The notes beneath the pieces are model-generated. The model was not told the DNA's origin and did no database searches. It was given only the letters and a program-made list of their open reading frames with translations. A DNA stretch of 64,000 nt. Source: a virus. Taxonomy: Duplodnaviria > Heunggongvirae > Uroviricota > Caudoviricetes. Made by a program: the position numbers and the translations under genes. Shown piece by piece: positions 6,440 to 24,030 of the stretch (the first letter of the stretch is position 1; each line of letters begins with the position of its first letter). The DNA lies in the IMG/VR virus record IMGVR_UViG_3300021387_000463, positions 299,001 to 363,000 of that record. One strand, written 5' to 3'.

Positions 6440-8131
6440 ATGAAAAGAAAAACTAGAATGTATGAGCCTTGGGGCTATCAAGACGAGAATAATTACCAAG
6501 GAGCAGGAACTATCCTTGAAAATGATTTGGAATCATTCTTCGCTGATGCTAAGTATAATAAGGATGATAATAAAATCCATTTCCAGAACAAGGACGGTGA
6601 AGAAGTAGGCTCACTTGATGTGAACGAATTCGTCAAGTCTGATAGCATTGTCGAAGAGGCAAAATATGAAGATGGTAAAATCATAATCAAGTTTACCAAT
6701 GGTGATGTTATTACAATTAACGTTGAGGAACTTATTGATGAAAATGAATTTGTTGATGGTCTTCAAGTTATAGAAGGACAAGTTTCTGTAAAAAGAAATG
6801 CTGAGTCTGATAATTATTTCACAGTTGATACTGACGGCATTAAGATTGCTGGTATAAAGGCTGATATTGATGCTGAAGAAGCAAGGGCAACGTCTGCTGA
6901 AACAGCACTTGACGAGAAGATTGATGCTGAAATCGCAAGGGCAAGTGGCGAGGAACAGAGAATTGACGAGAAGATTGATGACGAAGTTGCACGTGCTGAA
7001 GCAGCAGAACAAGCACTTGATGAGAAGGTTAGTGTTGAAAAGGGACGTGCTGAAACTGCTGAAGCGAATCTTAGCAGAAGGGCTGATACGCTTAATGATG
7101 AACTTGATGCCGAAAAAACTGTAAGGGAATCAGAAGATGTAAAACTCGACAGAAAGATTAACACTGAAATTGATGATAGAAAAGCAGATGTTGATGAGGA
7201 AGAGGCTCGTGCAAAAGCAGCAGAACAAGCATTGCAAGGCGCAATTAATGATGAGAAAACACGTGCAGAGGCAAAAGAAACGGCTCTACAAGATTCAATC
7301 GATGCTGAGAAAGCAAGGGCACTTTCTGCTGAGACTGATTTGCAAGATGCAATTGACTTGAAGGCAGACAAGGAGACAACCTACACCAAGGAAGAGGTTG
7401 ATGCATTAATTGCTGAGAAAGAGGCTGAGATTGTTCAGATTAAGAAGGATTACACTGATTTGAAGGAAATTGTGGCTGAAATTGGTGGAAACGTAGAGTG
7501 GGGGGTTCCTGCTGACGGCACGTTCAACAATATGATGAAGAAGAGTGGTACTGTTAAATTAGGAGAGAACACAACAACATCAACATACGCTGGTGGAATT
7601 ACGTCTAAGAATGATACAACATTGAATTTAAACGGAAAGAACCTTACATTTAGTGGACAAACTACAACTAACCCTGGTATTATGACAAGAGGAAAGCAAA
7701 AACTTACCATTATGGGCAAGGGTACTATTGATGCTGCTGGACGTATTGCTGTTGAGGCAAATGGTGCTGATACAGTAATCAACTTAAGTGGTACAACTGG
7801 ATTCTTTGCTGCTGAACCTACTTATGTAACTGACAGAAGTGGTGGTGAACTTATCTATTGCTATCTTGGTACAATCAACATATATGCTGGTGTATTCAAG
7901 AACAACGGTGATGACAAGAAATTCTTATTGAACTGCTATGATGCTAATCGTGCAGATGGAACGGCTAAGATTGTTGTATATGGTGGCAAGTTCTATGACT
8001 TTGACCCAGGAAATAATACTGCTGAGGGACCTGGCACATCATTCCTTGCTGAAGGCTATCACACTGAGGCAAGCACTGTTATTGAAGAGGATGTTGAGCA
8101 CACTGTATATACGGTTAAGAAGGATGCTTAA
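6440..8131 (+). CDS. Coiled-coil fibre protein with a C-terminal beta-rich domain
   Basis: Repeats of DAE.ARA.AAE.AL followed by a G/T/N-rich beta-helix-like region. N-terminal YEPWGYQDENNY resembles LEYYGFPDQNGY of the 4086 gene. Confidence 0.65.
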   Translation: MKRKTRMYEPWGYQDENNYQGAGTILENDLESFFADAKYNKDDNKIHFQNKDGEEVGSLDVNEFVKSDSIVEEAKYEDGKIIIKFTNGDVITINVEELIDENEFVDGLQVIEGQVSVKRNAESDNYFTVDTDGIKIAGIKADIDAEEARATSAETALDEKIDAEIARASGEEQRIDEKIDDEVARAEAAEQALDEKVSVEKGRAETAEANLSRRADTLNDELDAEKTVRESEDVKLDRKINTEIDDRKADVDEEEARAKAAEQALQGAINDEKTRAEAKETALQDSIDAEKARALSAETDLQDAIDLKADKETTYTKEEVDALIAEKEAEIVQIKKDYTDLKEIVAEIGGNVEWGVPADGTFNNMMKKSGTVKLGENTTTSTYAGGITSKNDTTLNLNGKNLTFSGQTTTNPGIMTRGKQKLTIMGKGTIDAAGRIAVEANGADTVINLSGTTGFFAAEPTYVTDRSGGELIYCYLGTINIYAGVFKNNGDDKKFLLNCYDANRADGTAKIVVYGGKFYDFDPGNNTAEGPGTSFLAEGYHTEASTVIEEDVEHTVYTVKKDA

Positions 8132-8150
8132 TGAATGCATAATCTATAAT

Positions 8151-11439: not shown

Positions 11440-14400
11440 ATGAAATATTTTAGGATATTTAATTACACAAATGATTACATTGAATATATGGCACAAGAAG
11501 GTGCTGTAGTTCCAAATATATCATATTGTTCTGGAGATAGTAAGACGTATATAACAGCTGGTAAACCATCTCCAACATGCACTTTGGTTATAGAAGGAGC
11601 GTCAGAAATAATTGCTGAAACCTGTAAATATAACGCAATGTGCGGTGGTAATGATGTCACATCATCTGCCGTATGGAGCATTATAAGTGGTTCTGATTAT
11701 GCAACGATAGATGCAACAAACGGTAAGATTACAATTTCATCTACAGCAAGTGAATCTCCTGTTACAATACAAGCGGCATATAATGGTCAAACTGCAACGA
11801 AGGAAATAACATTGACATATCAAAGTGGTTCTTCTGCTGAAACAACAACTGAGGTTGTAACTGATGAAAGCGGAAACACCACAACAGTTGTCACAACAGT
11901 GACAGAGAATGAAGACGGTTCTTCAACTGAGGTTGTAGAGTCAGTTGTGACAGACAGTGAAGGAAATGTCATTGGTAGCACAGAGAAAAGCAAGGAAACA
12001 AATTCAGATGGCTCATATACAAGTAATGAGACAAACTATGATGCCAATGGTAATGCAACTGATGGTACTAACATAACTGGAGATACTGATGGCAACGTAA
12101 GCACACAAGATGTTAAATATGATGAAAGTGGCAATACAATTGTCACTGGATATGATATTGACACAAGCGGAAATCCACATGGAGTGAAGGAGTTTAGAGC
12201 AGATGGTGTTAATACAGAATACTATGCTCTTGATGTTACACAAGGCTTTGTGATGGATATTCACTTTACAATAGATTTTACAAATCAGCCACCAAATCAA
12301 AGTGACAATCATCATAACATAATCAATTCAAAGAGGGCAACGCCAGCGCCTTGGTATGGTTTTCAAGTAAGGCAAACTCAAACAAACAAGTATATACAAC
12401 TTGGTACACAGTTCTCAACTGGCAGTAATGCGAACACAACAATAACAACAACAAATGCAAACAAATATAATGGTTCATCAAACATATATGAATATAATTT
12501 GCATATAGTGTATAACCCAACTGCTAGTACAAATAAGTTTACTTGTGATGAACTAATCGGTAATGCATTCAACTATACATCAAACAATACATTCCCAGAC
12601 ATTGAGGATTTGAAATATATTAAGACAACAGTTGGCTGTGCATTGGATGAAAACGGAGACCCATTCAGATTCTCAAACATTGATGTGTTCAGTTTTTCAA
12701 TTAAGAAACTTACCAACGTTAGTGAGCCAGTAATAGATTGTGACGGTCAGTATATTACAATAACTTGTGAAACTGTAGGTGCTGACATTCATTATAGGCT
12801 TAATGAGGTTGGCGTATATGCTAAGTATACAGAGCCAATAGCGATTACTGCTGACACACTTGTTCAAGCATATGCTGAACTTGAAGGTGACAAGAGTAAT
12901 ACTGTAAGCAAGAACTGCTTATATGATAATGGTATCGCAACACCAGTTATCACTTGTGATGGAGAATATGTGTCAATCGCTTGTGCAACAACTGATGCTG
13001 AACTTTATTACAGAATGAACGAAACTGGAACGTATAGTGTATATACTGATTCATTTGAGATAACTGCAACAACAGTTGTTGAGGCATATGCTCAAGTTGG
13101 AACTGAGGTTGGACATACTGCAAAGGAAACATGTACTTATAGCCCTGTTGTATTGGTAGCCCCAACTGTTATCTTCAACGGAGAGGAAATATCTTTGGCT
13201 TGTGAGACAGCAAGTGCAACCATAAACTATAGATTAAACCAAGAAGGAACTTATCAAGTTTATACTACTCCAATAGTAATTACTGCTGATACTCTTGTTG
13301 AAACATATTCATCATATAGAGGACGTGTAAGTTCTGTTGTAACGCAAAACTGTGAATATAGTCCAGTACACCATTATGAAAATGACTATTTGACATTTAG
13401 AATAACAAGTGCAGGAACAATTTGTTGGAAATCTGTTGGAAGCGGATATGCGAAAACAATTGAGTATAGCCTTAACGGTGGAGAATGGACTTCCATAACA
13501 GCAGCATCAACACCACCATCGATAAATGTGGCGGCTGGTGATGTTATAAGATTCAAGGGAACAAATACATCATACGCTGGAAGTAAATCAAATTATGCTT
13601 CATTCGGAAAAGATACTAGTGGGTCTACAGACATAGGTTCAACTGCTCATTTTGTGGCTGAAGGTAATGTAATGTCACTCATTTATGGAGATAATTTCAT
13701 TGGAAATACAGCAATGACAGGAACATACAATTTCTGTTCATTATTTAAGCGTACAAATATAGAGTCTGCTGAGAATTTAGTATTACCGTCAACAACGTTG
13801 ACAGAATATTGCTATCGTGCAATGTTCAGTTGGTGTACCGAATTAGCAGTTGCTCCTCAATTACCAGCCACAACATTGGCAAAAGGTGTTTATTGGTATA
13901 TGTTTGAGAAGTGTGCAATAACTGAAGCACCAGAACTTCTTGCTGAACATTTAGTAGCAGAATGTTATGGGGATATGTTTATTAATTGCGCAAGCCTTAA
14001 CTTTATTAAATGTATGGCAATTGATGGATTTAACACAACCAACTGTAAGCAGAATTGGGTTAGTGGTGTTACATCAAGCGGTACATTCGTAAAGGATAGT
14101 GGAGTTTCTGTAGATACTTGGAGTAGAGGAGCAAACGGTATTCCAACCAATTGGTTAGTGTATGATAACGTTCCAGTTGTTCCACCTACAATTACATATG
14201 ATGGATTCAGTGTAATAACATTAACTTGTGATACACAAGGTGCTGACATATATTATAGATTGAATAATAGTGGGGAATATAGTGCATATACAACCGCTAT
14301 AACGATAACAGCAGATACCATTATACAGACATATTCAGAATTAAACGGACAAGAGAGTAGAACTGTGTCTCAGACTTGTCAATATGTAAGTGATGTACCT

Positions 14401-16365
14401 ATTGAATATTCAAACAGAGATTTGAAGAAGTGGAACTATGGTAATCAAGAAATTACCACGCCATATTCAGTCAATGCAATTGATGGCCATTCATCAAATT
14501 ATGCAAAGGGAACATTTAACTTTGAGACAAGTTTTGCGCTGAGTGGGGCACAGCCAACGTATTTGTGGTTCCAGCATGCTGACCATTCGGCATCAATATA
14601 TGTTGATGATACACTAGTTGAAAAACATTGGGGAGGATATGCGGCATTCTTCACTGATATAAGTGAATATGTACATAGTGGCTCAAATACTGTAAAGGTT
14701 GCAATCAAGAACAATGAAGGAAACTATGTTGCACCAGCAGCAGGTGACTTCAACTTCAATGCAACACTCGGTAATGTAAGACTGTTGACAAGTCCATATC
14801 TTCCAGCTATGAACTACGGATATGATGGTTTCCATATCACTTCAACAGTGTCTGACGCAGAGGCAACTATCAATATAAAGACAAGTGTTCCAACTGGTGC
14901 TACGTTGGTTTGTAAGATTGATGATGGTAATACCAATATTTATTCTGCAACAAGTGCAAGTACTGGTGAGGAAATGACATTTACAAAGGTTATTGCAAAC
15001 CCTCATCTATGGAATGGTAAATCAGACCCATATCTATACACAGTAACACTTGAGATATATGGTGGAAACGATTTGTATCATAGGTTTGTAAGACCTTATG
15101 GATTGAGATACTATGAGTATGTAATCAATGATACTGAAAAGGTTGGTACTGATGAAAATCCGTATACTGGATTCTTGCTCAATGGTTCTCCATATCTTCT
15201 TAGAGGATGCTGTATGCATGATGATATAGAAGGAAGGGCAAATGCATTGACTGAAACCGATTATAACAATACATTTGCAACAATTCAAGAACTTGGACTT
15301 AACTTCTTACGTTTAGCTCATTATCCTCATCCGAAGGAGGTATATGACAGATGTGATGCATTAGGTATAGTTGTGCAGACTGAAGGCCCTTGTGTTAACA
15401 AGTTACAGTCAACAATGCCAGAAGACTATTATACACACTTAACTGGTCAGTATACAGATATGGTCAATCAGCATTATAATCATCCTTGTATCTTCTTCTG
15501 GGGTCTTAGCAATGAGACAACGACTGATGACAAGGCATTTGGTAAGCAGAAGGTAGAGGAATACACAGCATTAATCAAGAGACTTGATTCTGAGAGAATG
15601 GTAGGATATGTGCTTGCACAAAGTCCTGGAACAAGTCCAAGTGCATACTATAATGACCCATCCAATGTTGACTGGTTCGGATGTAACATATATGTTGGTT
15701 GGTACGACAGTCCAAATTCTAATACTCCTGTGTCACAGATTAACACACGTCTTAACAACACAATTAACAGGGTTGGAAAACCAATGGCATACTCAGAGTA
15801 TGGTTGCGGTGGTACACAACGTTGTCACTCAGATGACTTTATGAATACAACCACAAGGGGTAATCACGAAAGACACGATATTGAATATATGATGTGGCTA
15901 CATGAAGGACATATTGCGGCAATCAAGCAATATCCGCAGTTGATGTTCACATCTCAATGGCAGTTGTTCGACATTGCTGTGGCAAACAGAAATGAGGGAT
16001 ATACAGTATGCCTTGATGGTGAGAACACATCTATTGACGATGAATTGAGAAGACTCAATAACAAGGGTCTTGTTGAGAGAGACCACGTTACCAAGAAGGA
16101 TACCTTCTATCTGTACAAGGCTTGGTGGAATCAGACAGACAAATTCGTGCATATATGCCAGAAGAACTATACAAAGATGGTTGATAGGGCTATCAAGTGT
16201 TATACAAACCAAACAACTGAGTTTGCATTAAAGGTAAACGGAACAACTGTTGAAACAAAAGCTGCAACTGATAATATTCTTACGTTTACAGCACATACAT
16301 TCAGTAGTGGTGATGTAGTAACCGTTGAGAGTGGTAATATTAGTGATACATTTACTTTTGAATAA
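11440..16365 (+). CDS. Multidomain protein: docking N-terminus, Ig-like domain, four Fn3/chitobiase-like repeats, LPATTL-type repeats, C-terminal GH2 glycoside hydrolase
   Basis: GH2 motifs HLWNG..DPYLY, LRGCCMHDD, GLNFLRLAHYPH, YDRCDALGIVV, HYNHPCIFFWGLSNE (acid/base) and SEYG (nucleophile); four P.I.CDG...I.C.T.GA.I.YRLN repeats. Confidence 0.88.
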   Translation: MKYFRIFNYTNDYIEYMAQEGAVVPNISYCSGDSKTYITAGKPSPTCTLVIEGASEIIAETCKYNAMCGGNDVTSSAVWSIISGSDYATIDATNGKITISSTASESPVTIQAAYNGQTATKEITLTYQSGSSAETTTEVVTDESGNTTTVVTTVTENEDGSSTEVVESVVTDSEGNVIGSTEKSKETNSDGSYTSNETNYDANGNATDGTNITGDTDGNVSTQDVKYDESGNTIVTGYDIDTSGNPHGVKEFRADGVNTEYYALDVTQGFVMDIHFTIDFTNQPPNQSDNHHNIINSKRATPAPWYGFQVRQTQTNKYIQLGTQFSTGSNANTTITTTNANKYNGSSNIYEYNLHIVYNPTASTNKFTCDELIGNAFNYTSNNTFPDIEDLKYIKTTVGCALDENGDPFRFSNIDVFSFSIKKLTNVSEPVIDCDGQYITITCETVGADIHYRLNEVGVYAKYTEPIAITADTLVQAYAELEGDKSNTVSKNCLYDNGIATPVITCDGEYVSIACATTDAELYYRMNETGTYSVYTDSFEITATTVVEAYAQVGTEVGHTAKETCTYSPVVLVAPTVIFNGEEISLACETASATINYRLNQEGTYQVYTTPIVITADTLVETYSSYRGRVSSVVTQNCEYSPVHHYENDYLTFRITSAGTICWKSVGSGYAKTIEYSLNGGEWTSITAASTPPSINVAAGDVIRFKGTNTSYAGSKSNYASFGKDTSGSTDIGSTAHFVAEGNVMSLIYGDNFIGNTAMTGTYNFCSLFKRTNIESAENLVLPSTTLTEYCYRAMFSWCTELAVAPQLPATTLAKGVYWYMFEKCAITEAPELLAEHLVAECYGDMFINCASLNFIKCMAIDGFNTTNCKQNWVSGVTSSGTFVKDSGVSVDTWSRGANGIPTNWLVYDNVPVVPPTITYDGFSVITLTCDTQGADIYYRLNNSGEYSAYTTAITITADTIIQTYSELNGQESRTVSQTCQYVSDVPIEYSNRDLKKWNYGNQEITTPYSVNAIDGHSSNYAKGTFNFETSFALSGAQPTYLWFQHADHSASIYVDDTLVEKHWGGYAAFFTDISEYVHSGSNTVKVAIKNNEGNYVAPAAGDFNFNATLGNVRLLTSPYLPAMNYGYDGFHITSTVSDAEATINIKTSVPTGATLVCKIDDGNTNIYSATSASTGEEMTFTKVIANPHLWNGKSDPYLYTVTLEIYGGNDLYHRFVRPYGLRYYEYVINDTEKVGTDENPYTGFLLNGSPYLLRGCCMHDDIEGRANALTETDYNNTFATIQELGLNFLRLAHYPHPKEVYDRCDALGIVVQTEGPCVNKLQSTMPEDYYTHLTGQYTDMVNQHYNHPCIFFWGLSNETTTDDKAFGKQKVEEYTALIKRLDSERMVGYVLAQSPGTSPSAYYNDPSNVDWFGCNIYVGWYDSPNSNTPVSQINTRLNNTINRVGKPMAYSEYGCGGTQRCHSDDFMNTTTRGNHERHDIEYMMWLHEGHIAAIKQYPQLMFTSQWQLFDIAVANRNEGYTVCLDGENTSIDDELRRLNNKGLVERDHVTKKDTFYLYKAWWNQTDKFVHICQKNYTKMVDRAIKCYTNQTTEFALKVNGTTVETKAATDNILTFTAHTFSSGDVVTVESGNISDTFTFE

Positions 16366-16375
16366 AAAAATATTA

Positions 16376-16429
16376 ATGAGGGGTTGTTTAAATACAGTTC
16401 CTCATTTTTATTTCTCATCAGATATTTAT
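16376..16429 (+). repeat. 54-bp terminator/late-promoter direct repeat, copy 1
   Basis: 50/54 identical to 22802-22855 by manual alignment; contains the ATGAGG...CCTCAT hairpin, a T-tract and ATATTTAT. Confidence 0.9.
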
Positions 16430-16537
16430 ATAGTAAATGTATATATTTTAATAGATTTTTAAACAAGCTGGTATTCTTACCCTTTTATGAAATCTATATT
16501 TCTAATAATAAAAACTATTAAAAAAGAAATTAAATTT

Positions 16538-19500
16538 ATGGGCAAAAATGCTGATTTTGTCTCTCATAAGAAGAGCAAGCAAAAAAATCAAGATGGTAGT
16601 CCTAAACTACCAGTAGCATCTGCATTGGTGGAAGGTGAGATAGCCATCAACTTCGCTGAAAACGTTGAAACATTATCAATCAAGAATGAAAGCGGTGATG
16701 TCGTTACATTCTCAAGTGACAACTATTACACTGAGAAGAAACTTGGAAGCGGATTCACTGGTGAGAATAGTGGTGTAACCGTTACTGACACAATATTATG
16801 GGTTAGTGGAACAGGCGAAAATGCCATTGTGCAGAAAGGCGGTGGAAACACAGCAAGTGGAAAACTATCAGTAGCTATGGGTAGCGGCACTACAGCAAGT
16901 GGAGATTATTCTGTTACTGAAGGACGTATTACAACAGCAAGTGGCGATTACTCTCATGCTGAAGGGTATAATACAAAAGCAAATGGTATTTCTTCTCACG
17001 CTGAAGGTGCTAGTACAACAGCAAGTGGTCCTCAATCTCACGCTGAAGGAGGTAATACAAAAGCAAATGGTCAATATTCTCACGCTGAAGGAAATAGCAC
17101 AAGTGCAACTAGTCAGTCATCTCACGCTGAAGGAAATTATACAAAAGCGAATGGGCAATATTCACACGCTGAAGGAAGTGGCACAGTAGCAAGTGGTCAG
17201 TCTTCTCACGCTGAAGGAGGTAATACAAAAGCAAATGGTCAATATTCTCACGCTGAAGGACAAAGTACTAGTGCAACTAGTCAATCATCCCACGCTGAAG
17301 GTAGTGGTACAACTGCAAATGGCACTTGTTCTCACTCAGAAGGATATAATACAACTGCAAATGGTGTCTTTTCTCATGCTGAAGGTGATAATACAACAGC
17401 AAATAATCAGTCAGAGCACGCAAGTGGACAATATAACGTAAGTAACAGTGCTTCAACTACGTTTGGTGATAGTGGCAATACACTATTCAGTGTCGGTAAT
17501 GGTACTGCTAATAATGCAAGGCACAACGCTTTTGAGATTAGGCAGAATGGTGATATCTACATAACCAGTGGTAGTTCTGATATTAAGTTACAAGATTATA
17601 TTGGAAGTCCAATAGATGTTGACCAAGTATTGGATGATACGACATCCGCAAGCACAAATCCTGTATCAAGCAAGGCTGTATATAAGGCAGCGACTGATAA
17701 TGAACTTGTATGGACGAATGCATTTGTTGCAATGAGTGGTACTGTAAGTGCGCATACTGCAAATACTGAGATACACGTAACTGCTGCCGACAAGACGGCT
17801 TGGGTCAATAAGATTGGCTATGCTGAATACGATTCAAACGATAAGAAGATTAATTTCTATAAGAATGATACAGATACCGCAACATCGATTTGTTATATTG
17901 ATGCAACCGATTTCATCAAGGATGGCATGGTACAGAATGTTGAAATAAAGGATGTAACAAGTGGTGGAAGTCAAGTTACTTGCCTTGTAATATCATTCAA
18001 TACAGATGCTGGAAAGCAAGATATAAACGTGCCTATAAGTGACATATTTGATGCTTCAAATTATTATACAAAATCTCAGACAAGCGGTGCAACAGAAATA
18101 TCAAATGCATTGAATGGCCTCGATGCAAGGAAACTTGATGCAAGTGCATATACACCAAGCGTTGAACTTTGGGTAAGAGGAACAGGATTGAACTCTGTTG
18201 TTCTTAAGGGTTCAAGTAGCACAGCAAGTGGTAACTTCTCTGTGGCAGAAGGCAGTCAAACACAAGCGATTGGTAACTATTCACATGCTGAAGGCTATTT
18301 TACAACTGCACGTGGTAGCGATTCTCATGCTGAAGGATGTAATACAAAAGCAAATGGCTATGCATCTCACGCTGAAGGTAGTGGTACAACAGCAAGTGGT
18401 GAACGTTCTCACGCTGAAGGATATAATACAAAGGCAAGTGGTTATTATTCTCACGCAGAAGGATATGATACAACTGCAAGTAATTATTCTCACGCAGAAG
18501 GATATAATACAAAGGCAAGTGGTGATTATTCTCATGCTGAAGGATATGGTACAACAGCAAGTGGTGAACGTTCTCACGCTGAAGGAAGAAGTACAAGTGC
18601 AACATCATATCAAGCACACGCAGAAGGATATTATACAAAAGCAAATGGCTATGCATCTCACGCTGAAGGTAGTGGTACAACAGCAAGTGGCATTTATTCT
18701 CACGCTGAAGGAAATAATACAACAGCAAATAATCAGTCAGAGCACGCAAGTGGACAATATAACGTAAGTAACAGTGCTTCAACTACGTTTGGTGATAGCG
18801 GTAACACATTATTCTCAGTTGGTAACGGTACATCAAGCTCAGCACGTCACAATGCGTTTGAGATTAGGCAGAATGGAGATATTTATATAACTAGTGGTAG
18901 TTCTGATATTAAGTTGCAGGATTACATTGGAGGAAGTGTAGAGACGGTAACAGCAATCACTCCTTCAAATAGTGGTTCAACAAGCCCAATTGCAACGAAG
19001 GTTGTTGCTGAGAATGAATTGGCAGTATCTGCTGCATTGAATGACCTCGATGCAAGGAAGCTTGATGCAAGTGCATATACGCCAACAGATTTAAGCAATT
19101 ATTATACAAAATCTCAGACAAGCGGTGCAACAGAAATATCAAATGCATTGAATGGCCTCGATACAAGGAAACTTGATGTATCGGCATATACACCAAGCGT
19201 TGAACTTTGGGTAAGCGGAACAGGTTTAAACTCTGTTGTGGTTAAGGGTTCAAGTGGTACTGCAAGTGGAAACTACTCTGTGGCAGAAGGATTTAAAACA
19301 ATAGCAAGTGGTGAATCTTCTCACGCTGAAGGATATGGTACAAAAGCAAGTTTTTATTACAGCCACGCTGAAGGTAGTGGTACAACAGCAAGTAACAATT
19401 CTAGCCACGCTGAAGGAAGTAATACAAAAGCAATGGGTGAGTCTTCTCACGCAGAAGGACATTATACAGAAGCACATAACAGTTCTAGCCACGCTGAAGG

Positions 19501-19903
19501 AGACCATACAACAGCAAATGGTCCTTATTCTCACGCAGAAGGTTCTTATACAAAAGCAAATGGTTCATATTCACACGCAGAAGGTGGTAATACAATAACA
19601 AATAATCAGTCAGAGCACGCAAGTGGTAGATATAATGTAAGTTCTAAGGCTAGCAATACTTTTGGCAACAGTGGAAATACTTTATTTAGTGTTGGCAATG
19701 GTACTGATAATAATGCAAGGCACAACGCTTTTGAAATACGTCAGAATGGTGATATCTACATAACAAGTGGTGGTACGACATCAAGTGAAAGTATTAAGTT
19801 ACAAGACAGCATTGGAAGTAAGGCTGATAAGTCAACCACATATACAAAGTCTGAAATCGATGATATGATTGGTGACATTGAAACATTATTGGCTGCAATA
19901 TAA
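16538..19903 (+). CDS. Tail-fibre-like protein with a T4 gp37-type N-terminus and three blocks of YadA-head-like 14-aa repeats
   Basis: PVASALVEGEIAINF...IKNESGDVV resembles the gp37 N-terminal LAEGELAIN motif; more than 30 SHAEG..T.A.G repeats. Start at 16538 chosen over 16487 for its A-rich context. Confidence 0.82.
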   Translation: MGKNADFVSHKKSKQKNQDGSPKLPVASALVEGEIAINFAENVETLSIKNESGDVVTFSSDNYYTEKKLGSGFTGENSGVTVTDTILWVSGTGENAIVQKGGGNTASGKLSVAMGSGTTASGDYSVTEGRITTASGDYSHAEGYNTKANGISSHAEGASTTASGPQSHAEGGNTKANGQYSHAEGNSTSATSQSSHAEGNYTKANGQYSHAEGSGTVASGQSSHAEGGNTKANGQYSHAEGQSTSATSQSSHAEGSGTTANGTCSHSEGYNTTANGVFSHAEGDNTTANNQSEHASGQYNVSNSASTTFGDSGNTLFSVGNGTANNARHNAFEIRQNGDIYITSGSSDIKLQDYIGSPIDVDQVLDDTTSASTNPVSSKAVYKAATDNELVWTNAFVAMSGTVSAHTANTEIHVTAADKTAWVNKIGYAEYDSNDKKINFYKNDTDTATSICYIDATDFIKDGMVQNVEIKDVTSGGSQVTCLVISFNTDAGKQDINVPISDIFDASNYYTKSQTSGATEISNALNGLDARKLDASAYTPSVELWVRGTGLNSVVLKGSSSTASGNFSVAEGSQTQAIGNYSHAEGYFTTARGSDSHAEGCNTKANGYASHAEGSGTTASGERSHAEGYNTKASGYYSHAEGYDTTASNYSHAEGYNTKASGDYSHAEGYGTTASGERSHAEGRSTSATSYQAHAEGYYTKANGYASHAEGSGTTASGIYSHAEGNNTTANNQSEHASGQYNVSNSASTTFGDSGNTLFSVGNGTSSSARHNAFEIRQNGDIYITSGSSDIKLQDYIGGSVETVTAITPSNSGSTSPIATKVVAENELAVSAALNDLDARKLDASAYTPTDLSNYYTKSQTSGATEISNALNGLDTRKLDVSAYTPSVELWVSGTGLNSVVVKGSSGTASGNYSVAEGFKTIASGESSHAEGYGTKASFYYSHAEGSGTTASNNSSHAEGSNTKAMGESSHAEGHYTEAHNSSSHAEGDHTTANGPYSHAEGSYTKANGSYSHAEGGNTITNNQSEHASGRYNVSSKASNTFGNSGNTLFSVGNGTDNNARHNAFEIRQNGDIYITSGGTTSSESIKLQDSIGSKADKSTTYTKSEIDDMIGDIETLLAAI

Positions 19904-19911
19904 TAAGTAAT

Positions 19912-20061
19912 ATGTGTATAATAAAGTATATTAAGAAATTATTGAAATGTGATTGTGTATCCGTTTCAGAATTCGAATCAAATAAAGATAAGATTTCGGC
20001 AGCATTGAAAGACTTAAATGATAGAATCGGTGCTGCTGAAATAAAACTAAAAGGCTTATAA
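19912..20061 (+). CDS. 49-aa ORF missing from the track
   Basis: MCIIKYIKKLLKCDCVSVSEFESNKDKISAALKDLNDRIGAAEIKLKGL fills the gap between two genes; ISAALKDLNDR matches VSAALNDLDAR in the upstream fibre. Confidence 0.55.
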   Translation: MCIIKYIKKLLKCDCVSVSEFESNKDKISAALKDLNDRIGAAEIKLKGL

Positions 20062-20081
20062 ATTCTAAAATATAATATATT

Positions 20082-20756
20082 ATGAGTATAGCAAGTGAAA
20101 TATCAAGATTACAAACAGCAAAGGCTGATATAAAAACTGCACTTGAAAATAAAGGAATAACTGTACCAAGTAGTACCAAGATAGATGGATATGCACAATT
20201 GATTAACGGTATACCCACAGCAGACCCTATGATTGATAACCACTATTATCGTGACCTTGGACTTCCAAGTGGCACAAAGTGGGCTACAATGAACGTTGGT
20301 GCTTCATCAGAAACGGATTATGGTAACTTCTATCAATATGGTAAGGGTGCTGACCAATATGCTGCAACAAGTGGACAATCTGATTATAGTGGTACTGAAA
20401 ACCCATTGGCGACAAGTGCTGATACAGCAGCTCAAGTATGGGGTGGTAATTGGCATATGCCAACAAAGGCTCAGTTTGAGGAATTGACCGCAAATACCAC
20501 TTACACTTGGACTACCGTTAATGGAACTAATGGCGGTTTGTTTACCTCTAACATCAACGGCAACTCTATCTATTTTCCTGCCGCTGGTATCTGGTTCGGT
20601 GGTAGTCACTACGATGAGGGTTCGTACGGCTATGTTTGGAGTTCATCGCCTGATGCTAGTCGCCTCGCCTTCAGCTTGCACTTCCGCAGTGGAGACAAGG
20701 GCGTGTACAACGACAGCCGTGAGTGCGGCTTCTCGGTGCGCCCTGTGCTTGGTTGA
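20082..20756 (+). CDS. C-type-lectin-fold protein, probable DGR target (receptor-binding tip)
   Basis: DLGLPSGTKWATMNVGA, WGGNWHMPT, FPAAG, G..WSSS and terminal G.SVRPV motifs typical of Bacteroidota DGR targets. Confidence 0.85.
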   Translation: MSIASEISRLQTAKADIKTALENKGITVPSSTKIDGYAQLINGIPTADPMIDNHYYRDLGLPSGTKWATMNVGASSETDYGNFYQYGKGADQYAATSGQSDYSGTENPLATSADTAAQVWGGNWHMPTKAQFEELTANTTYTWTTVNGTNGGLFTSNINGNSIYFPAAGIWFGGSHYDEGSYGYVWSSSPDASRLAFSLHFRSGDKGVYNDSRECGFSVRPVLG

Positions 20757-20760
20757 CGAG
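20585..20760 (+). other. Putative DGR variable region (VR) and IMH
   Basis: Abrupt rise in GC and a dense run of NNC codons (ATC, TTC, CAC, TAC, CGC, CTC, AGC, GAC, TGC), as expected from mutagenised AAC template codons; GC-rich invariant end CGGTGCGCCCTGTG. Confidence 0.75.
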
Positions 20761-20761
20761 C

Positions 20762-20796
20762 CAAACTGACGTTTGCTTCAACACAGCTAACGCTGT
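20762..20796 (+). promoter_or_regulatory. Two short hairpins downstream of the VR (candidate DGR homing cis-elements)
   Basis: CAAAC-TGAC-GTTTG (20762-20775) and ACAGC-TAAC-GCTGT (20783-20796). Confidence 0.55.
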
Positions 20797-20844
20797 ATGG
20801 TAATTCATCTTAATAAAGCCAAAACAGGATTAAATTATAAAAAA

Positions 20845-20899
20845 AGTTTGCCCTAGGCTTGTGCTTGGGGCAAATTTTTATGTTATATAAAATATTTAT
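20845..20899 (+). terminator. Terminator + late promoter cassette
   Basis: TTTGCCCTAGGC-TTGT-GCTTGGGGCAAATTTTT followed by ATATTTAT at 20892. Confidence 0.75.
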
Positions 20900-20936
20900 A
20901 TATTAGATAATAAGACAAATTAAATATTTAAAAAAT

Positions 20937-22757
20937 ATGGCAGTAAAAAATCTTTATTCATTGGGACTATTACGTAACGGTAAGGTGTACCCAAGCAAGC
21001 AACTTGCTTATCAAGCTTTTGAGCAAGGTACAAATGACGGTGTTGCAAAGTTGGCACGTTATCTTGACGCAAGTCTTGGTGGAGACCCAATCATCAGAAC
21101 GTTGGTTGGCTTCTACGCAAATGCTGAAGAAATGGCAGATAATGGTGGTGGGCAGTCACATTATACCATTCTTGATATCGAAGGCAGTGCAGGAGAGATA
21201 GAGGAACTTAAGAAAGCGGTTGCTAAAATTAATGAGACAATCGGTGATGGTATTAGCGGCACTACTCTTACAGACGCAATCAACGACATCAATGACAGAA
21301 TCGGTAGCGGTTTCTCTGAGCATTTTACAGTAGCAGACGCATTGGTTGCACTTGCTGAAGAGTTATCTGATGCATTAACAGTTTCTCTTGATGTTGCAGG
21401 AGAGCCTACAAGCGGTTTTCTTAAGACTTATATCCTTTCACAAGGTACAGGTACAGGAAAGACTGAAATAGGAAGAATCGACATTCCAAAGGACTTGGTG
21501 GTAACAGAAGGTAAGTTAGTACATGGTTATTGGAGTGGCGATACATTTGCAGAGGATGAGGAAGGACCTGACACGGCTATCAAACTTGTGATTGCAAACC
21601 AAGAAGAGCCTGTATATATCAATACTAAAGACCTTGTTGATTACTATACAGCAGGTAATGGTATTGATATTGATAACACCCACAATACAATTTCAATCAA
21701 GTACAATACTCACAGTGAGGAATTCCTTGTTGTAGATGAGGATGGTATCAGAGTTGAGGGCATACAGGCAGCAATCGACAAGAAGGCTGACGAAGAGAGA
21801 CTTGAGGCAAGTGATGGCATTTCAATCGCTTCAAACAAGGTTAAGGCTGTTGCAGCAGGATATTCAGCTCCAGCAATCAAGAACCCAATTACCGTTGACA
21901 AGGACGGCATTAAGTTCGCAAATGTGTTGGATTGTGGATTCTTCGATGACGAGACAAAGGTTGCAGCAACAGCAGAGGAAATCAATGCAATCACAGACCC
22001 ACAGAATACTGACGTGTTCATCAGTGGAAATGAGGCATTGAACGCACTTGCAGCAAAGAAGACATTCAAGAACCTTGAAATTGCAAACGTTGAGGCAGCA
22101 CAGCAAGTTAACCTTGCAGCGGTTGAGTCAATAGCACTTGATGGTGTTGAGGTAACTGGTGACAAGGGTTCTTCAAACGGATATTTCTTGGTAGATGCTC
22201 CAAAGGTTGATGTTTCAAACATCACTATTGCAGATGGTGCAAAGCCATATAACGTATTTGAGGAAGTTGGTGCTGGTACTGATTCATTTAACGCTTCAAA
22301 CGTGAAGGTTAATGACGTTGCACTTAAGCACAATGTATTTAACATCTACAGGCCAAATAACGATGCTGTAATCAACATTTCAGACGTTAATCTTAACTTG
22401 AATGTTAACAACTCAAACGCATTGAGACTTGCAAACTACAAGAACGCTACTGGTGTTACAGTTAACTTCGAGAATGTTTCTTGGACATATGAGAACACAC
22501 CAAATATCGAGTCAGCAGACTTCGGATGGGCAGGTTTGATTATCTATCAGCCAGCCACTACTGACGTTGCACTTGGTGGTGACTTGTCAAAGGTTCAGAC
22601 TTGGACATTCAACTTCAAGAACTGTAAGTACAATGGCGTTAAGGTAACTGAGAACAACTTCGGTAAGAAGAACCAAGTATTCTACCTTTATAACATTAAC
22701 AAAACTGGTGCAATCACAGACCCTGTTGAAAATGGTTTGGTATTGAACTTTGCATAA
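20937..22757 (+). CDS. Putative fibre/decoration protein with a C-terminal beta-helix-like domain
   Basis: N-terminus and IG.IDIPKD motif shared with the 9456 gene; internal LDCGFF motif followed by an N/V-rich beta domain. Confidence 0.55.
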   Translation: MAVKNLYSLGLLRNGKVYPSKQLAYQAFEQGTNDGVAKLARYLDASLGGDPIIRTLVGFYANAEEMADNGGGQSHYTILDIEGSAGEIEELKKAVAKINETIGDGISGTTLTDAINDINDRIGSGFSEHFTVADALVALAEELSDALTVSLDVAGEPTSGFLKTYILSQGTGTGKTEIGRIDIPKDLVVTEGKLVHGYWSGDTFAEDEEGPDTAIKLVIANQEEPVYINTKDLVDYYTAGNGIDIDNTHNTISIKYNTHSEEFLVVDEDGIRVEGIQAAIDKKADEERLEASDGISIASNKVKAVAAGYSAPAIKNPITVDKDGIKFANVLDCGFFDDETKVAATAEEINAITDPQNTDVFISGNEALNALAAKKTFKNLEIANVEAAQQVNLAAVESIALDGVEVTGDKGSSNGYFLVDAPKVDVSNITIADGAKPYNVFEEVGAGTDSFNASNVKVNDVALKHNVFNIYRPNNDAVINISDVNLNLNVNNSNALRLANYKNATGVTVNFENVSWTYENTPNIESADFGWAGLIIYQPATTDVALGGDLSKVQTWTFNFKNCKYNGVKVTENNFGKKNQVFYLYNINKTGAITDPVENGLVLNFA

Positions 22758-22801: not shown

Positions 22802-22855
22802 ATGAGGGATTGTTTAAATACAGTTCCTCATTTTTATTTTACATAAGATATTTAT
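22802..22855 (+). repeat. 54-bp terminator/late-promoter direct repeat, copy 2
   Basis: 50/54 identical to 16376-16429. Confidence 0.9.
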
Positions 22856-22896
22856 TACTATATAAGAATAATAAGTTTAATAACAATATAACAATT

Positions 22897-24030
22897 ATGA
22901 GTCTATTTCTAAAACTTTTTAATACAACAGCAGAATATAACGCTTATACAGCAGATACAAGCACTTTTATTAAACCAAATGTATCTGTATGCAAAGATGA
23001 TTTATCTCTTGTGTATTATAATCCACTCAGATGCGATGAAACAAGTGTATATGAGATTATAGGAGAACCTTCATATCCTTCTACTGTAGATGGTGCTGAT
23101 TCATCATTTGACATCGCTGTCAACTATAGAATAACCGATATTAATACAGCGTGTACAGAGACCGTTACAGAAGGAACTGATATAGTAACTGTAGAAATTG
23201 GTGTTAATCCAAGTGGAAGTGCAAGTAGGACTGTAAGCGGTACTGTTGATTATCACGGCACTGAGATTGAGTATAGTATTACTCAGAGCAAGTTTGAGGC
23301 AAAGATAACTGCTAAGTTCGATGTAACTGATACAAGTAATCCAACGCAAATTGGATATAATCAATATACAAGTGGTTTCAGTAAAATTGAGATTGACGGT
23401 GTTGCACAACCATCAGTCGTAAGTGCGTATACGTTTAGTACAACAGGTGAACATACAGTTAAGTATACATTAGCAGACCCAACAAGTATTGGTGCTTATG
23501 CTTTCACTAGTTGTAGTGGTCTTACAAGTATAGTTATACCAGATAGTGTTACAAGTATTAAAGGTAGTGCTTTCATGTATTGTAGTGGTCTTACAAGTAT
23601 AGTTATACCAGATAGTGTTACAAGTATTGGTAATAGTGTTTTCCAAGGTTGTAAAAGTCTTACAAGTTGTACAATAGGTAGTGGAGTTACAACTATTGGT
23701 TCTCAAGCTTTCAATAATTGTACTAGTCTTACAAGTATAGTTATACCAGATAGTGTTACAAGTATTAATGGTAGTGCTTTCATGTATTGTAGGGGTCTTG
23801 AAAGTTGTACAATAGGTAGTGGTATTACAAGCATTGGTACTCAAGCTTTCAGAGACTGTAGAGTTCTTACGAGTATAACAATAGAAGCAACAACGCCACC
23901 AACTTTAGGAAGTGATGTATTTTTTGATGCCAATAAGTGTACAATCTATGTACCAAGTGGTAGCGTAGATGCATATAAGGCAGCAAGTGGTTGGAGTACT
24001 TATGCAAGTAGAATACAAGCGATACCTTAA
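22897..24030 (+). CDS. Second BspA-type LRR_5 protein
   Basis: 23-aa LRR repeats and the same C-cap as the 8249 gene. Start at ATG 22897, because the longer track ORF runs through the terminator/promoter. Confidence 0.92.
   Translation: MSLFLKLFNTTAEYNAYTADTSTFIKPNVSVCKDDLSLVYYNPLRCDETSVYEIIGEPSYPSTVDGADSSFDIAVNYRITDINTACTETVTEGTDIVTVEIGVNPSGSASRTVSGTVDYHGTEIEYSITQSKFEAKITAKFDVTDTSNPTQIGYNQYTSGFSKIEIDGVAQPSVVSAYTFSTTGEHTVKYTLADPTSIGAYAFTSCSGLTSIVIPDSVTSIKGSAFMYCSGLTSIVIPDSVTSIGNSVFQGCKSLTSCTIGSGVTTIGSQAFNNCTSLTSIVIPDSVTSINGSAFMYCRGLESCTIGSGITSIGTQAFRDCRVLTSITIEATTPPTLGSDVFFDANKCTIYVPSGSVDAYKAASGWSTYASRIQAIP

Follow-up and report, generated by a model that had tools for sequence, protein, structure and literature searches.

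The last 60 codons of a small gene in the tail-fibre block of a rumen jumbo phage were clearly written by a DGR and are evidently still polymorphic, on a complete 412-kb phage genome that carries no DGR. The gene lies within a stretch of 64,000 nucleotides (hereafter, the window), which corresponds to G000:C1:299001-363000 of an IMG/VR phage record of 412,753 bp with 36% GC. The gene behaves as a DGR target and has proven targets among its homologues; at the level of the cassette, it has no template repeat (TR), RT or Avd in its genome. We tentatively suggest, at a little short of an even chance, that the alleles of this variable region (VR) are written on phage DNA by a DGR of another replicon in the same cell.

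The target ORF, at 20082-20756 on the plus strand, sits in a block of tail-fibre genes. Its predicted parts and its neighbours in the window are as follows.
16487-19903: YadA-like repeat fibre gene, upstream of the target ORF
20082-20756, plus strand: target ORF of 224 aa, with an N-terminal fibre-anchor module, a FISUMP/Lcl_C-like C-type-lectin domain and a C-terminal VR
20082-20222, plus strand: N-terminal helical module (aa 1-47), common to other fibre genes and swapped between relatives
20571-20750, plus strand: VR of 60 codons, placed by differences from the closest relative (contig L039) and by six protein alleles that differ only there
20937-22757: 606-aa fibre-like gene, downstream of the target ORF
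22810-24030: LRR gene, downstream of the 606-aa fibre-like gene
A micro-ORF just 5' of the lectin gene is conserved between the window (19908-20063) and a related phage contig (L040:10569-10725), with 80% DNA identity, a Cys-containing start and a coiled-coil-like end.

Structural modelling shows the target as a small protein with a predicted C-type-lectin fold, whose VR is at the 3' end of the ORF. The AF2 model, built from 72 homologues, has a mean pLDDT of 74 and includes N-terminal helices at residues 3-23 and 34-42. Some loci match the protein over residues 1-45 only, at 60-76% identity. In a VIA-align search (exhaustive, wide), the C-terminal domain of Lcl (8q4e) is the first match, with a Z score of 7.1. 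Bd2740 scores 6.9, and the DGR variable proteins TaqVP, Mtd and TvpA score 6.7, 6.2 and 6.2, respectively. These Z scores are moderate; the list is coherent, in that it consists almost wholly of C-type-lectin folds, including many CTLDs. Neither Foldseek against the PDB nor a search of its sequences by profile found a clear match for the target protein. The protein has weak profile matches to Lcl_C (PF07603, DUF1566; 25.0 bits against a cut-off of 34.9) and Fib_succ_major (PF09603; 23.2 against 33.9), which span residues 74-222, and it scores 21 bits with TIGR02145 (FISUMP) against a cut-off of 41.65; none of the three reaches its curated cut-off. Two results nonetheless support homology to the FISUMP/Lcl_C group: an identity of 42-51% to cellular members, and 8q4e as the best structural match. 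A protein sequence search finds 2,423 homologues of the window protein.

The first-pass annotation, which was made from the letters of the window, had noted that the end of the gene switches to GC-rich NNC codons and had proposed a DGR-type VR in a C-type-lectin-fold gene. Both points are borne out by comparison with the rest of the genome and with relatives. The last 60 codons, at 20571-20750, are mostly NNC or NNT. The GC content of 150-nt windows reaches 0.59-0.62 at 20543-20828, against a genome mean of 0.36 (sd 0.058), and GC3 climbs from 0.05-0.4 to 0.6-0.85 in the tail of the gene. This interval is among the three GC-richest islands of the 412-kb genome and has the fewest adenines of them (23/150); the other two islands encode Gly-rich repeats. 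AT skew is negative only at 20500-20800.

Variation is restricted to particular sites and has the signature expected of AAC codons changed to NNC. When the window is compared with the DNA of its closest relative, whose contig (L039) encodes the allele P0007, 37 of 180 positions differ in the VR and 4 of 237 differ upstream (Fisher p = 7e-11). Adenine-patterned variation, whose absence among related phages the first-pass annotation had named as evidence against its proposal, is present: codon positions 1 and 2 hold 31 of the 37 differences. Of the six differences at third positions, four are in GCN or TCN codons, in which an adenine in the template would not change the amino acid. Codons between the variable positions are identical even at synonymous sites, and third positions are fixed at C or T. 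If every position that differs between the window and L039 is set to A, then the resulting pseudo-template is Asn-rich.

The same pattern is found in proteins. Up to about residue 165, the closest homologues match the window protein exactly or almost exactly; beyond it, they differ from it at scattered positions that recur. For P0001, identity is 100% over residues 1-165 and 71% in the tail. The corresponding values, up to about residue 165 and in the tail, are 98% and 64% for P0002, 92% and 64% for P0003, and 90% and 64% for P0007. P0122 is a further VR allele with this pattern. P0007 has a different N-terminus from the window protein and the same lectin domain. P0003 and P0122 have one extra codon within the VR (aa 209-213) relative to the window, so templates of at least two lengths are implied for the window-VR subfamily. 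Among 119 family proteins, all 20 hypervariable columns are within the last 55 residues. NNC codons cannot specify K, E, Q, M or W, and these five residues together account for 2.1% of 19 of these columns, pooled, versus 18.7% of the rest of the protein (p = 1e-134). Column 214 was left out of the pool; it varies between K and E, as AAG/GAG would.

The GC-rich NNC tail is not a property of the domain, because there are homologues that lack it. Those of the Lak megaphages are AT-rich and base-for-base invariant among Lak-A1, A2 and C1, and the homologue in the 435-kb phage of L002 is AT-rich like its genome. Lak phages are also the only GenBank phages matched in a protein search (31% identity), and a DNA search of GenBank phages found no match to the target. 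The Lak homologues (L100-L103; match 1501-2142) contain an in-frame TAG codon, in keeping with the stop-codon recoding of these phages.

Together, these comparisons of sequences show the last 60 codons to be a bona fide DGR variable region, the product of reverse transcription that mutagenised the adenines of an AAY-rich template. Such copying accounts for the NNC and NNT codons, the scarcity of adenines, the high GC content and the untouched GC-rich 3' end. The identical 224-aa protein is present in independent JGI, ENA and Logan assemblies. This recurrence of one VR allele (P0121) implies that turnover is not extreme.

The 3' end of the gene and the sequence that follows it contain these elements.
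20727-20747, plus strand: invariant GC-rich 3' block of the VR (IMH-like), GGCTTCTCGGTGCGCCCTGTG, identical in the window and L039
20752-20782 (extended), plus strand: hairpin 1, with the core CAAAC-TGAC-GTTTG at 20762-20775; the extended stem takes in the stop codon
20783-20796, plus strand: hairpin 2, ACAGC-TAAC-GCTGT; kept in L025, with the loop TATA in L020
20759-20801, plus strand: optional insert of 43 nt, comprising most of hairpin 1 and all of hairpin 2
20842-20879, plus strand: intrinsic terminator of the target gene (DNA fold z = -4.7)

The last variable base is at 20748, and GGCTTCTCGGTGCGCCCTGTG is followed by the last codons, CTT GGT TGA. This 21-mer is nearly identical in L006, L007, L009, L013, L020 and L025. 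The GC-rich invariant stretch and the two hairpins with 5-bp stems and TRAC loops had been described in the first-pass annotation, and they are present as described, with the loops TGAC and TAAC; hairpin 1 amounts to 12 bp if bulges are included. As DNA, the hairpin region has a predicted folding energy of -10.5 kcal/mol (z = -3.1), and 0 of 200 shuffled sequences were as stable. Hairpin 1 is conserved in L020 and L025, where, in the latter, its outer stem is re-registered yet paired. The 43-nt insert is a single copy in the genome. It is missing from L039 as a clean indel: AATTCATC directly follows the stop codon in L039 and follows the insert in the window. Only two other copies occur in IMG/VR, in L020 and L025, and both follow homologous VRs in genes whose proteins are approximately 37% identical to that of the window. 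Stems are kept while one loop changes from TAAC to TATA. Conservation of the stems and recurrence only after such VRs mark the insert as a conserved cis element that is tied to the window-type VR, yet is optional.

As for the proposal that they are a DGR element, the hairpins exist and recur after two distant homologues; however, they belong to an optional insert that L039 dispenses with, and they do not match the published consensus. In that consensus, which derives from a few phage DGRs of another lineage, a GC-rich IMH precedes a hairpin or cruciform with a GC-rich stem of 7-10 bp and a 4-nt GRNA loop (PMC3240598). In contrast, the window hairpins have mixed 5-bp stems, and neither loop, TGAC or TAAC, matches GRNA, whichever strand is read. 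No Rfam family matches the hairpin element. The terminators after the target gene and its homologues have both their stems and their loop sequence in common (CAAGCG.A.GCC-like; window 20842-20879, L013:10665-10706, L013 at approximately 20160-20200 on the minus strand, L039:3864-3905 and L040:11556-11590), and the copy in the window seems to have it in reverse orientation.

The phage genome is essentially complete. Both ends of the record fall within one Rad50/gp46-like gene: the start encodes its C-terminal 518 residues, and the end encodes its P-loop N-terminal 262 residues. The halves are not in frame when joined, so a few bases are missing. Because the two ends are halves of one gene, the 412,753-bp sequence is essentially the whole genome, and there is no room for a lost DGR cassette. 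CheckV gives a completeness of 100%. The nominally 'linear' record thus represents a circle or a permuted genome, minus those few bases (ends at L078:1-1557 and L079:7213-8000).

The first-pass annotation found no template repeat or RT in the window, placed any such elements at least 20 kb away, and proposed a distant phage DGR or a host or prophage DGR as their source. Their absence extends to the entire 412,753-bp genome, which excludes a DGR located elsewhere in this phage. The proposed BLAST comparison of the VR with the rest of the phage genome was conducted and returned only the VR itself, with no TR-like copy, as did a search for direct repeats. A gapless scan of 60-nt windows on both strands, in which mismatches to a genomic A carry no penalty, found no TR; the best off-target matches have at least 8 non-A mismatches, and all are A-rich runs. 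The same scan recovers the template of L040 with 0 non-A mismatches and that of the bacterial genome G013. A masked scan based on the 151 positions that are invariant between two VRs, which is blind to the base that is mutagenised, also found no TR in the genome. Nor did a six-frame search with a pseudo-template peptide that has Asn at all hypervariable columns, which as a control recovered DUF1566-type templates in G006 and G007 and FISUMP-type templates in Bacteroidales. Among short proteins that might be ORFs over a TR, only the VR allele P0122 was found.

Searches for the protein components gave the same result. A six-frame RVT_1 profile search that recovers the RTs of G006 and G007 found no RT in this genome, and a scan for the DGR-RT motif (I/L/V)GxxxSQ...YxDD found no match. 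Searches with tblastn using the RT, Avd and cognate target of L040 found nothing in the genome, not even a remnant. With no template repeat, Avd or RT in its genome, the window copy cannot rewrite itself.

Homologous genes with GC-rich tails (0.47-0.55, versus 0.28-0.37 for their contigs) are found in many rumen-type phage contigs. No cognate TR is present among approximately 35 contigs and records with such genes, among them three that have a DGR and one other complete genome, of 401 kb. Cognate templates were sought within 10 kb on either side of the homologous genes, in the whole records G001, G002, G006 and G007, in G003, G004, G005, G008 and G010, and in L040, and none was found. The second complete genome (G003) has two such target genes and no RT. 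An extra match within it was considered as a template and rejected, because it is the second target gene. The two paralogues share an identical 3' module of approximately 80 nt.

In three relatives, a canonical DGR lies among the same fibre genes, at a distance of 0.05-6 kb from the homologous gene. The RT is approximately 6 kb from this gene in L011/G006 and approximately 4 kb in L019/G007, which has two templates, and in L040 the lectin gene starts 47 nt past the RT stop codon. However, the templates in L011, L019 and L040 serve only DUF1566-type VRs of other genes, and none matches the FISUMP-type VR. The cassettes (DUF1566-type target, TR, Avd and RT) are at L040:6588-9831, L019:14500-18200 and L011:14100-18085. 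The L040 VR (7557-7707) has 0 non-A mismatches to its TR (7996-8146), and L019 has two TR/VR pairs. In L040, the first lectin gene is followed by a second lectin gene with a window-type N-terminus and then by a homologue of the 606-aa fibre gene, so the region is syntenic with the window. In L039 (L039:1-5000 compared with window 13207-20759), the lectin gene is located before the YadA-like fibre gene, not after it, and its N-terminal module differs. The fibre block is reshuffled gene by gene between near-identical phages (94% identity over a 3.1-kb flank).

The closest cellular homologues are in Bacteroidales, with 42-51% identity. These FISUMP/Lcl_C (DUF1566)-type targets contain a homologous domain, and, like the window gene, they have the layout PAAG...YWSS...SVRPV and a GC-rich NNC tail. 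In the closest of them, G013 (44% identity; L107/L128), a TR lies 1.3 kb downstream with an adjacent RT, and TR and VR differ by 0 non-A and 23 A mismatches in 150 nt. The phage gene, in contrast, has neither a TR nor an RT. With the pseudo-TR peptide, FISUMP-type templates were detected in 9 of 401 Bacteroidales genomes, and 7 of 11 templates have an RT motif in the same locus. These templates are real, and as candidates for the TR of the window they were rejected as non-cognate.

The first-pass annotation had also proposed that a copy of the TR be sought in candidate host genomes. Neither the GTDB species representatives nor approximately 460 Bacteroidales genomes yielded a cognate TR. Specifically, BLAST with the VR DNA found none in 401 Bacteroidales genomes, and the pseudo-TR peptide, searched against these 401 and 57 more from one family, found none, with a best identity of 68%. 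A scan of the GTDB representatives with the 21-mer found no TR; its one match is an unrelated lipoprotein gene, which was rejected. Exact-pattern scans of IMG/VR revealed 5 distinct VRs of the family and 0 TRs, and the remaining hits are chance matches. For template searches in metagenomes, a tolerant pattern would be, for example, GTTTGGNGTTCNTCGCCT or the 21-mer GGCTNCTCGGTGCGCCCTGTG.

In its architecture, the window gene resembles the established targets BPP-1 Mtd, Treponema TvpA and Thermus TaqVP. In each, a CLec-fold ORF has its VR at the 3' end, NNC codons occur at discrete positions within a fixed scaffold, the 3' end is invariant and GC-rich, a hairpin comes straight after the stop codon, and variation among near-identical genomes is limited to the VR. 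Unlike those systems, the window phage has no TR, Avd or RT in its complete genome. Targets that lie apart from the RT and TR are known: Treponema denticola has seven targets, and Lineage-4 DGRs have targets more than 100 kb away (Wu et al. 2018, PMC5758913). The window gene is likewise apart from any RT or TR, and a diffusible complex of RT, Avd and TR RNA would be needed in such an arrangement. However, the known remote targets share a genome with their DGR, whereas the window target belongs to a phage, and its DGR, if one exists, to a different genome. Phage DGRs have been expected not to have remote targets (Wu et al. 2018, PMC5758913).

Writing in trans is the simplest reading of the alleles, because they have the phage-specific N-terminus and an unchanged lectin scaffold in common, and their differences are limited to the VR. 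Donation of the tail alone by homologous recombination is unlikely, because the cellular homologues are too distant (at most 51% identity). The supplier might be a DGR-bearing relative that co-infects the host, or a DGR resident in a Bacteroidales host, probably one similar to Prevotella. Resident DGRs of Bacteroidales do use the FISUMP-type target class (G013 and the templates in 9 of 401 genomes), and the only GenBank phages with homologues of the target are Prevotella Lak phages. The supplied RT/Avd/template complex would rewrite the VR on phage DNA inside the shared cell, with the invariant 3' block, and perhaps also the hairpins next to it, as a cis landing site. In this way, a module that binds a receptor or a glycan would acquire new specificities, and the phage would be spared the cost of a retroelement. 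Such writing is mechanistically possible, because plasmid-borne cassettes of BPP-1 act across replicons: an avd-TR-brt cassette on a plasmid retargets VRs on phage, plasmid or chromosome and needs no other phage product (PMC3240598, PMC5758913).

Several results count against writing in trans. The cognate TR is found in none of IMG/VR, the GTDB representatives, approximately 460 Bacteroidales genomes or the records of relatives. The hairpins are short, their loops are not GRNA, and the closest relative has none; the DGRs of L011, L019 and L040 template another VR; and allele P0121 recurs. The main rival, to which we give appreciably less than an even chance, is that the allele is frozen or imported. 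The VR would then have been written in sibling or ancestral phages with a DGR in cis, after which the cassette was lost, or the gene or its 3' end was imported into this phage, and the VR is no longer rewritten. The location of DGRs directly beside homologous genes in related contigs, with the L040 RT ending 47 nt before the gene start, is consistent with such a history, as are the mosaic fibre block, in which the L039 gene has another N-terminus and precedes the YadA-like fibre gene, and the identical P0121 allele in several assemblies. However, a template is required by this history as much as by writing in trans, and it was found in none of the collections searched: neither the approximately 35 contigs and records noted above, including those with a DGR and the 401-kb genome, nor IMG/VR, in which VRs of the family do occur, contain one. 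Moreover, this genome retains no remnant of an RT, Avd or TR, and the terminator is the only inverted repeat of at least 12 nt around the target gene (19850-20950), a search that degenerate ends could escape.

That the tail is not the work of a DGR at all, and is instead a fast-evolving receptor-binding tip under diversifying selection or a GC-rich foreign import that mimics a VR, is very improbable. The failure to find a TR or RT and the sub-cut-off Pfam and NCBIfam scores fit such an origin, but selection would not purge K, E, Q, M and W from 19 columns (2% versus 19%), and it would neither fix third positions at C or T while randomising positions 1 and 2 nor spare the synonymous sites between. 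Also, the G013 homologue, which has a proven TR in cis, has the same layout. We find it harder still to credit an assembly artefact, that is, a chimeric GC-rich tail or a DGR region dropped from the assembly. The record is given as linear, and its end-gene halves are out of frame with a few bases missing. However, independent JGI, ENA and Logan assemblies contain the identical 224-aa protein, many relatives have the same architecture, the ends inside one Rad50-like gene leave no space for a cassette, and the second complete relative (G003) likewise has no RT.

To our knowledge, DGRs have always been described as self-contained cassettes, and surveys for them start from the RT. Targets on a different genome would be invisible to such surveys, and an RT-first survey is blind to remote targets (Roux et al., PMC8144416). 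In a limited search of the literature, we found no description of a phage-borne target whose DGR is outside the phage. The state observed here, a DGR-written VR on a genome with no DGR, is found again in many phages related to this one. Should a host or a co-infecting element be the writer, then evolution of phage host range can depend on a retroelement in another genome, and the impact of DGRs in microbiomes is underestimated. If phages borrow DGRs, then mutagenic retrohoming across genomes occurs in nature. It is a rather doubtful extension that the whole rumen jumbo-phage receptor-binding family, with more than 2,400 homologues, owes its continued hypervariability to DGRs encoded outside the phages. 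In that case, the phages would carry only the landing site and would borrow the RT-Avd-template complex of a host-resident or co-infecting element. The VR, the 21-mer and the optional 43-nt hairpin insert provide a concrete test system.

Orphan VRs may exist in bacteria too: G337 has eight lectin-domain copies and no RVT_1 match. In Bacteroidales, multi-copy families of lectin-domain genes with GC-rich, NNC-biased tails are found in G337 (8 paralogues; L104), G101, G230 and G268.
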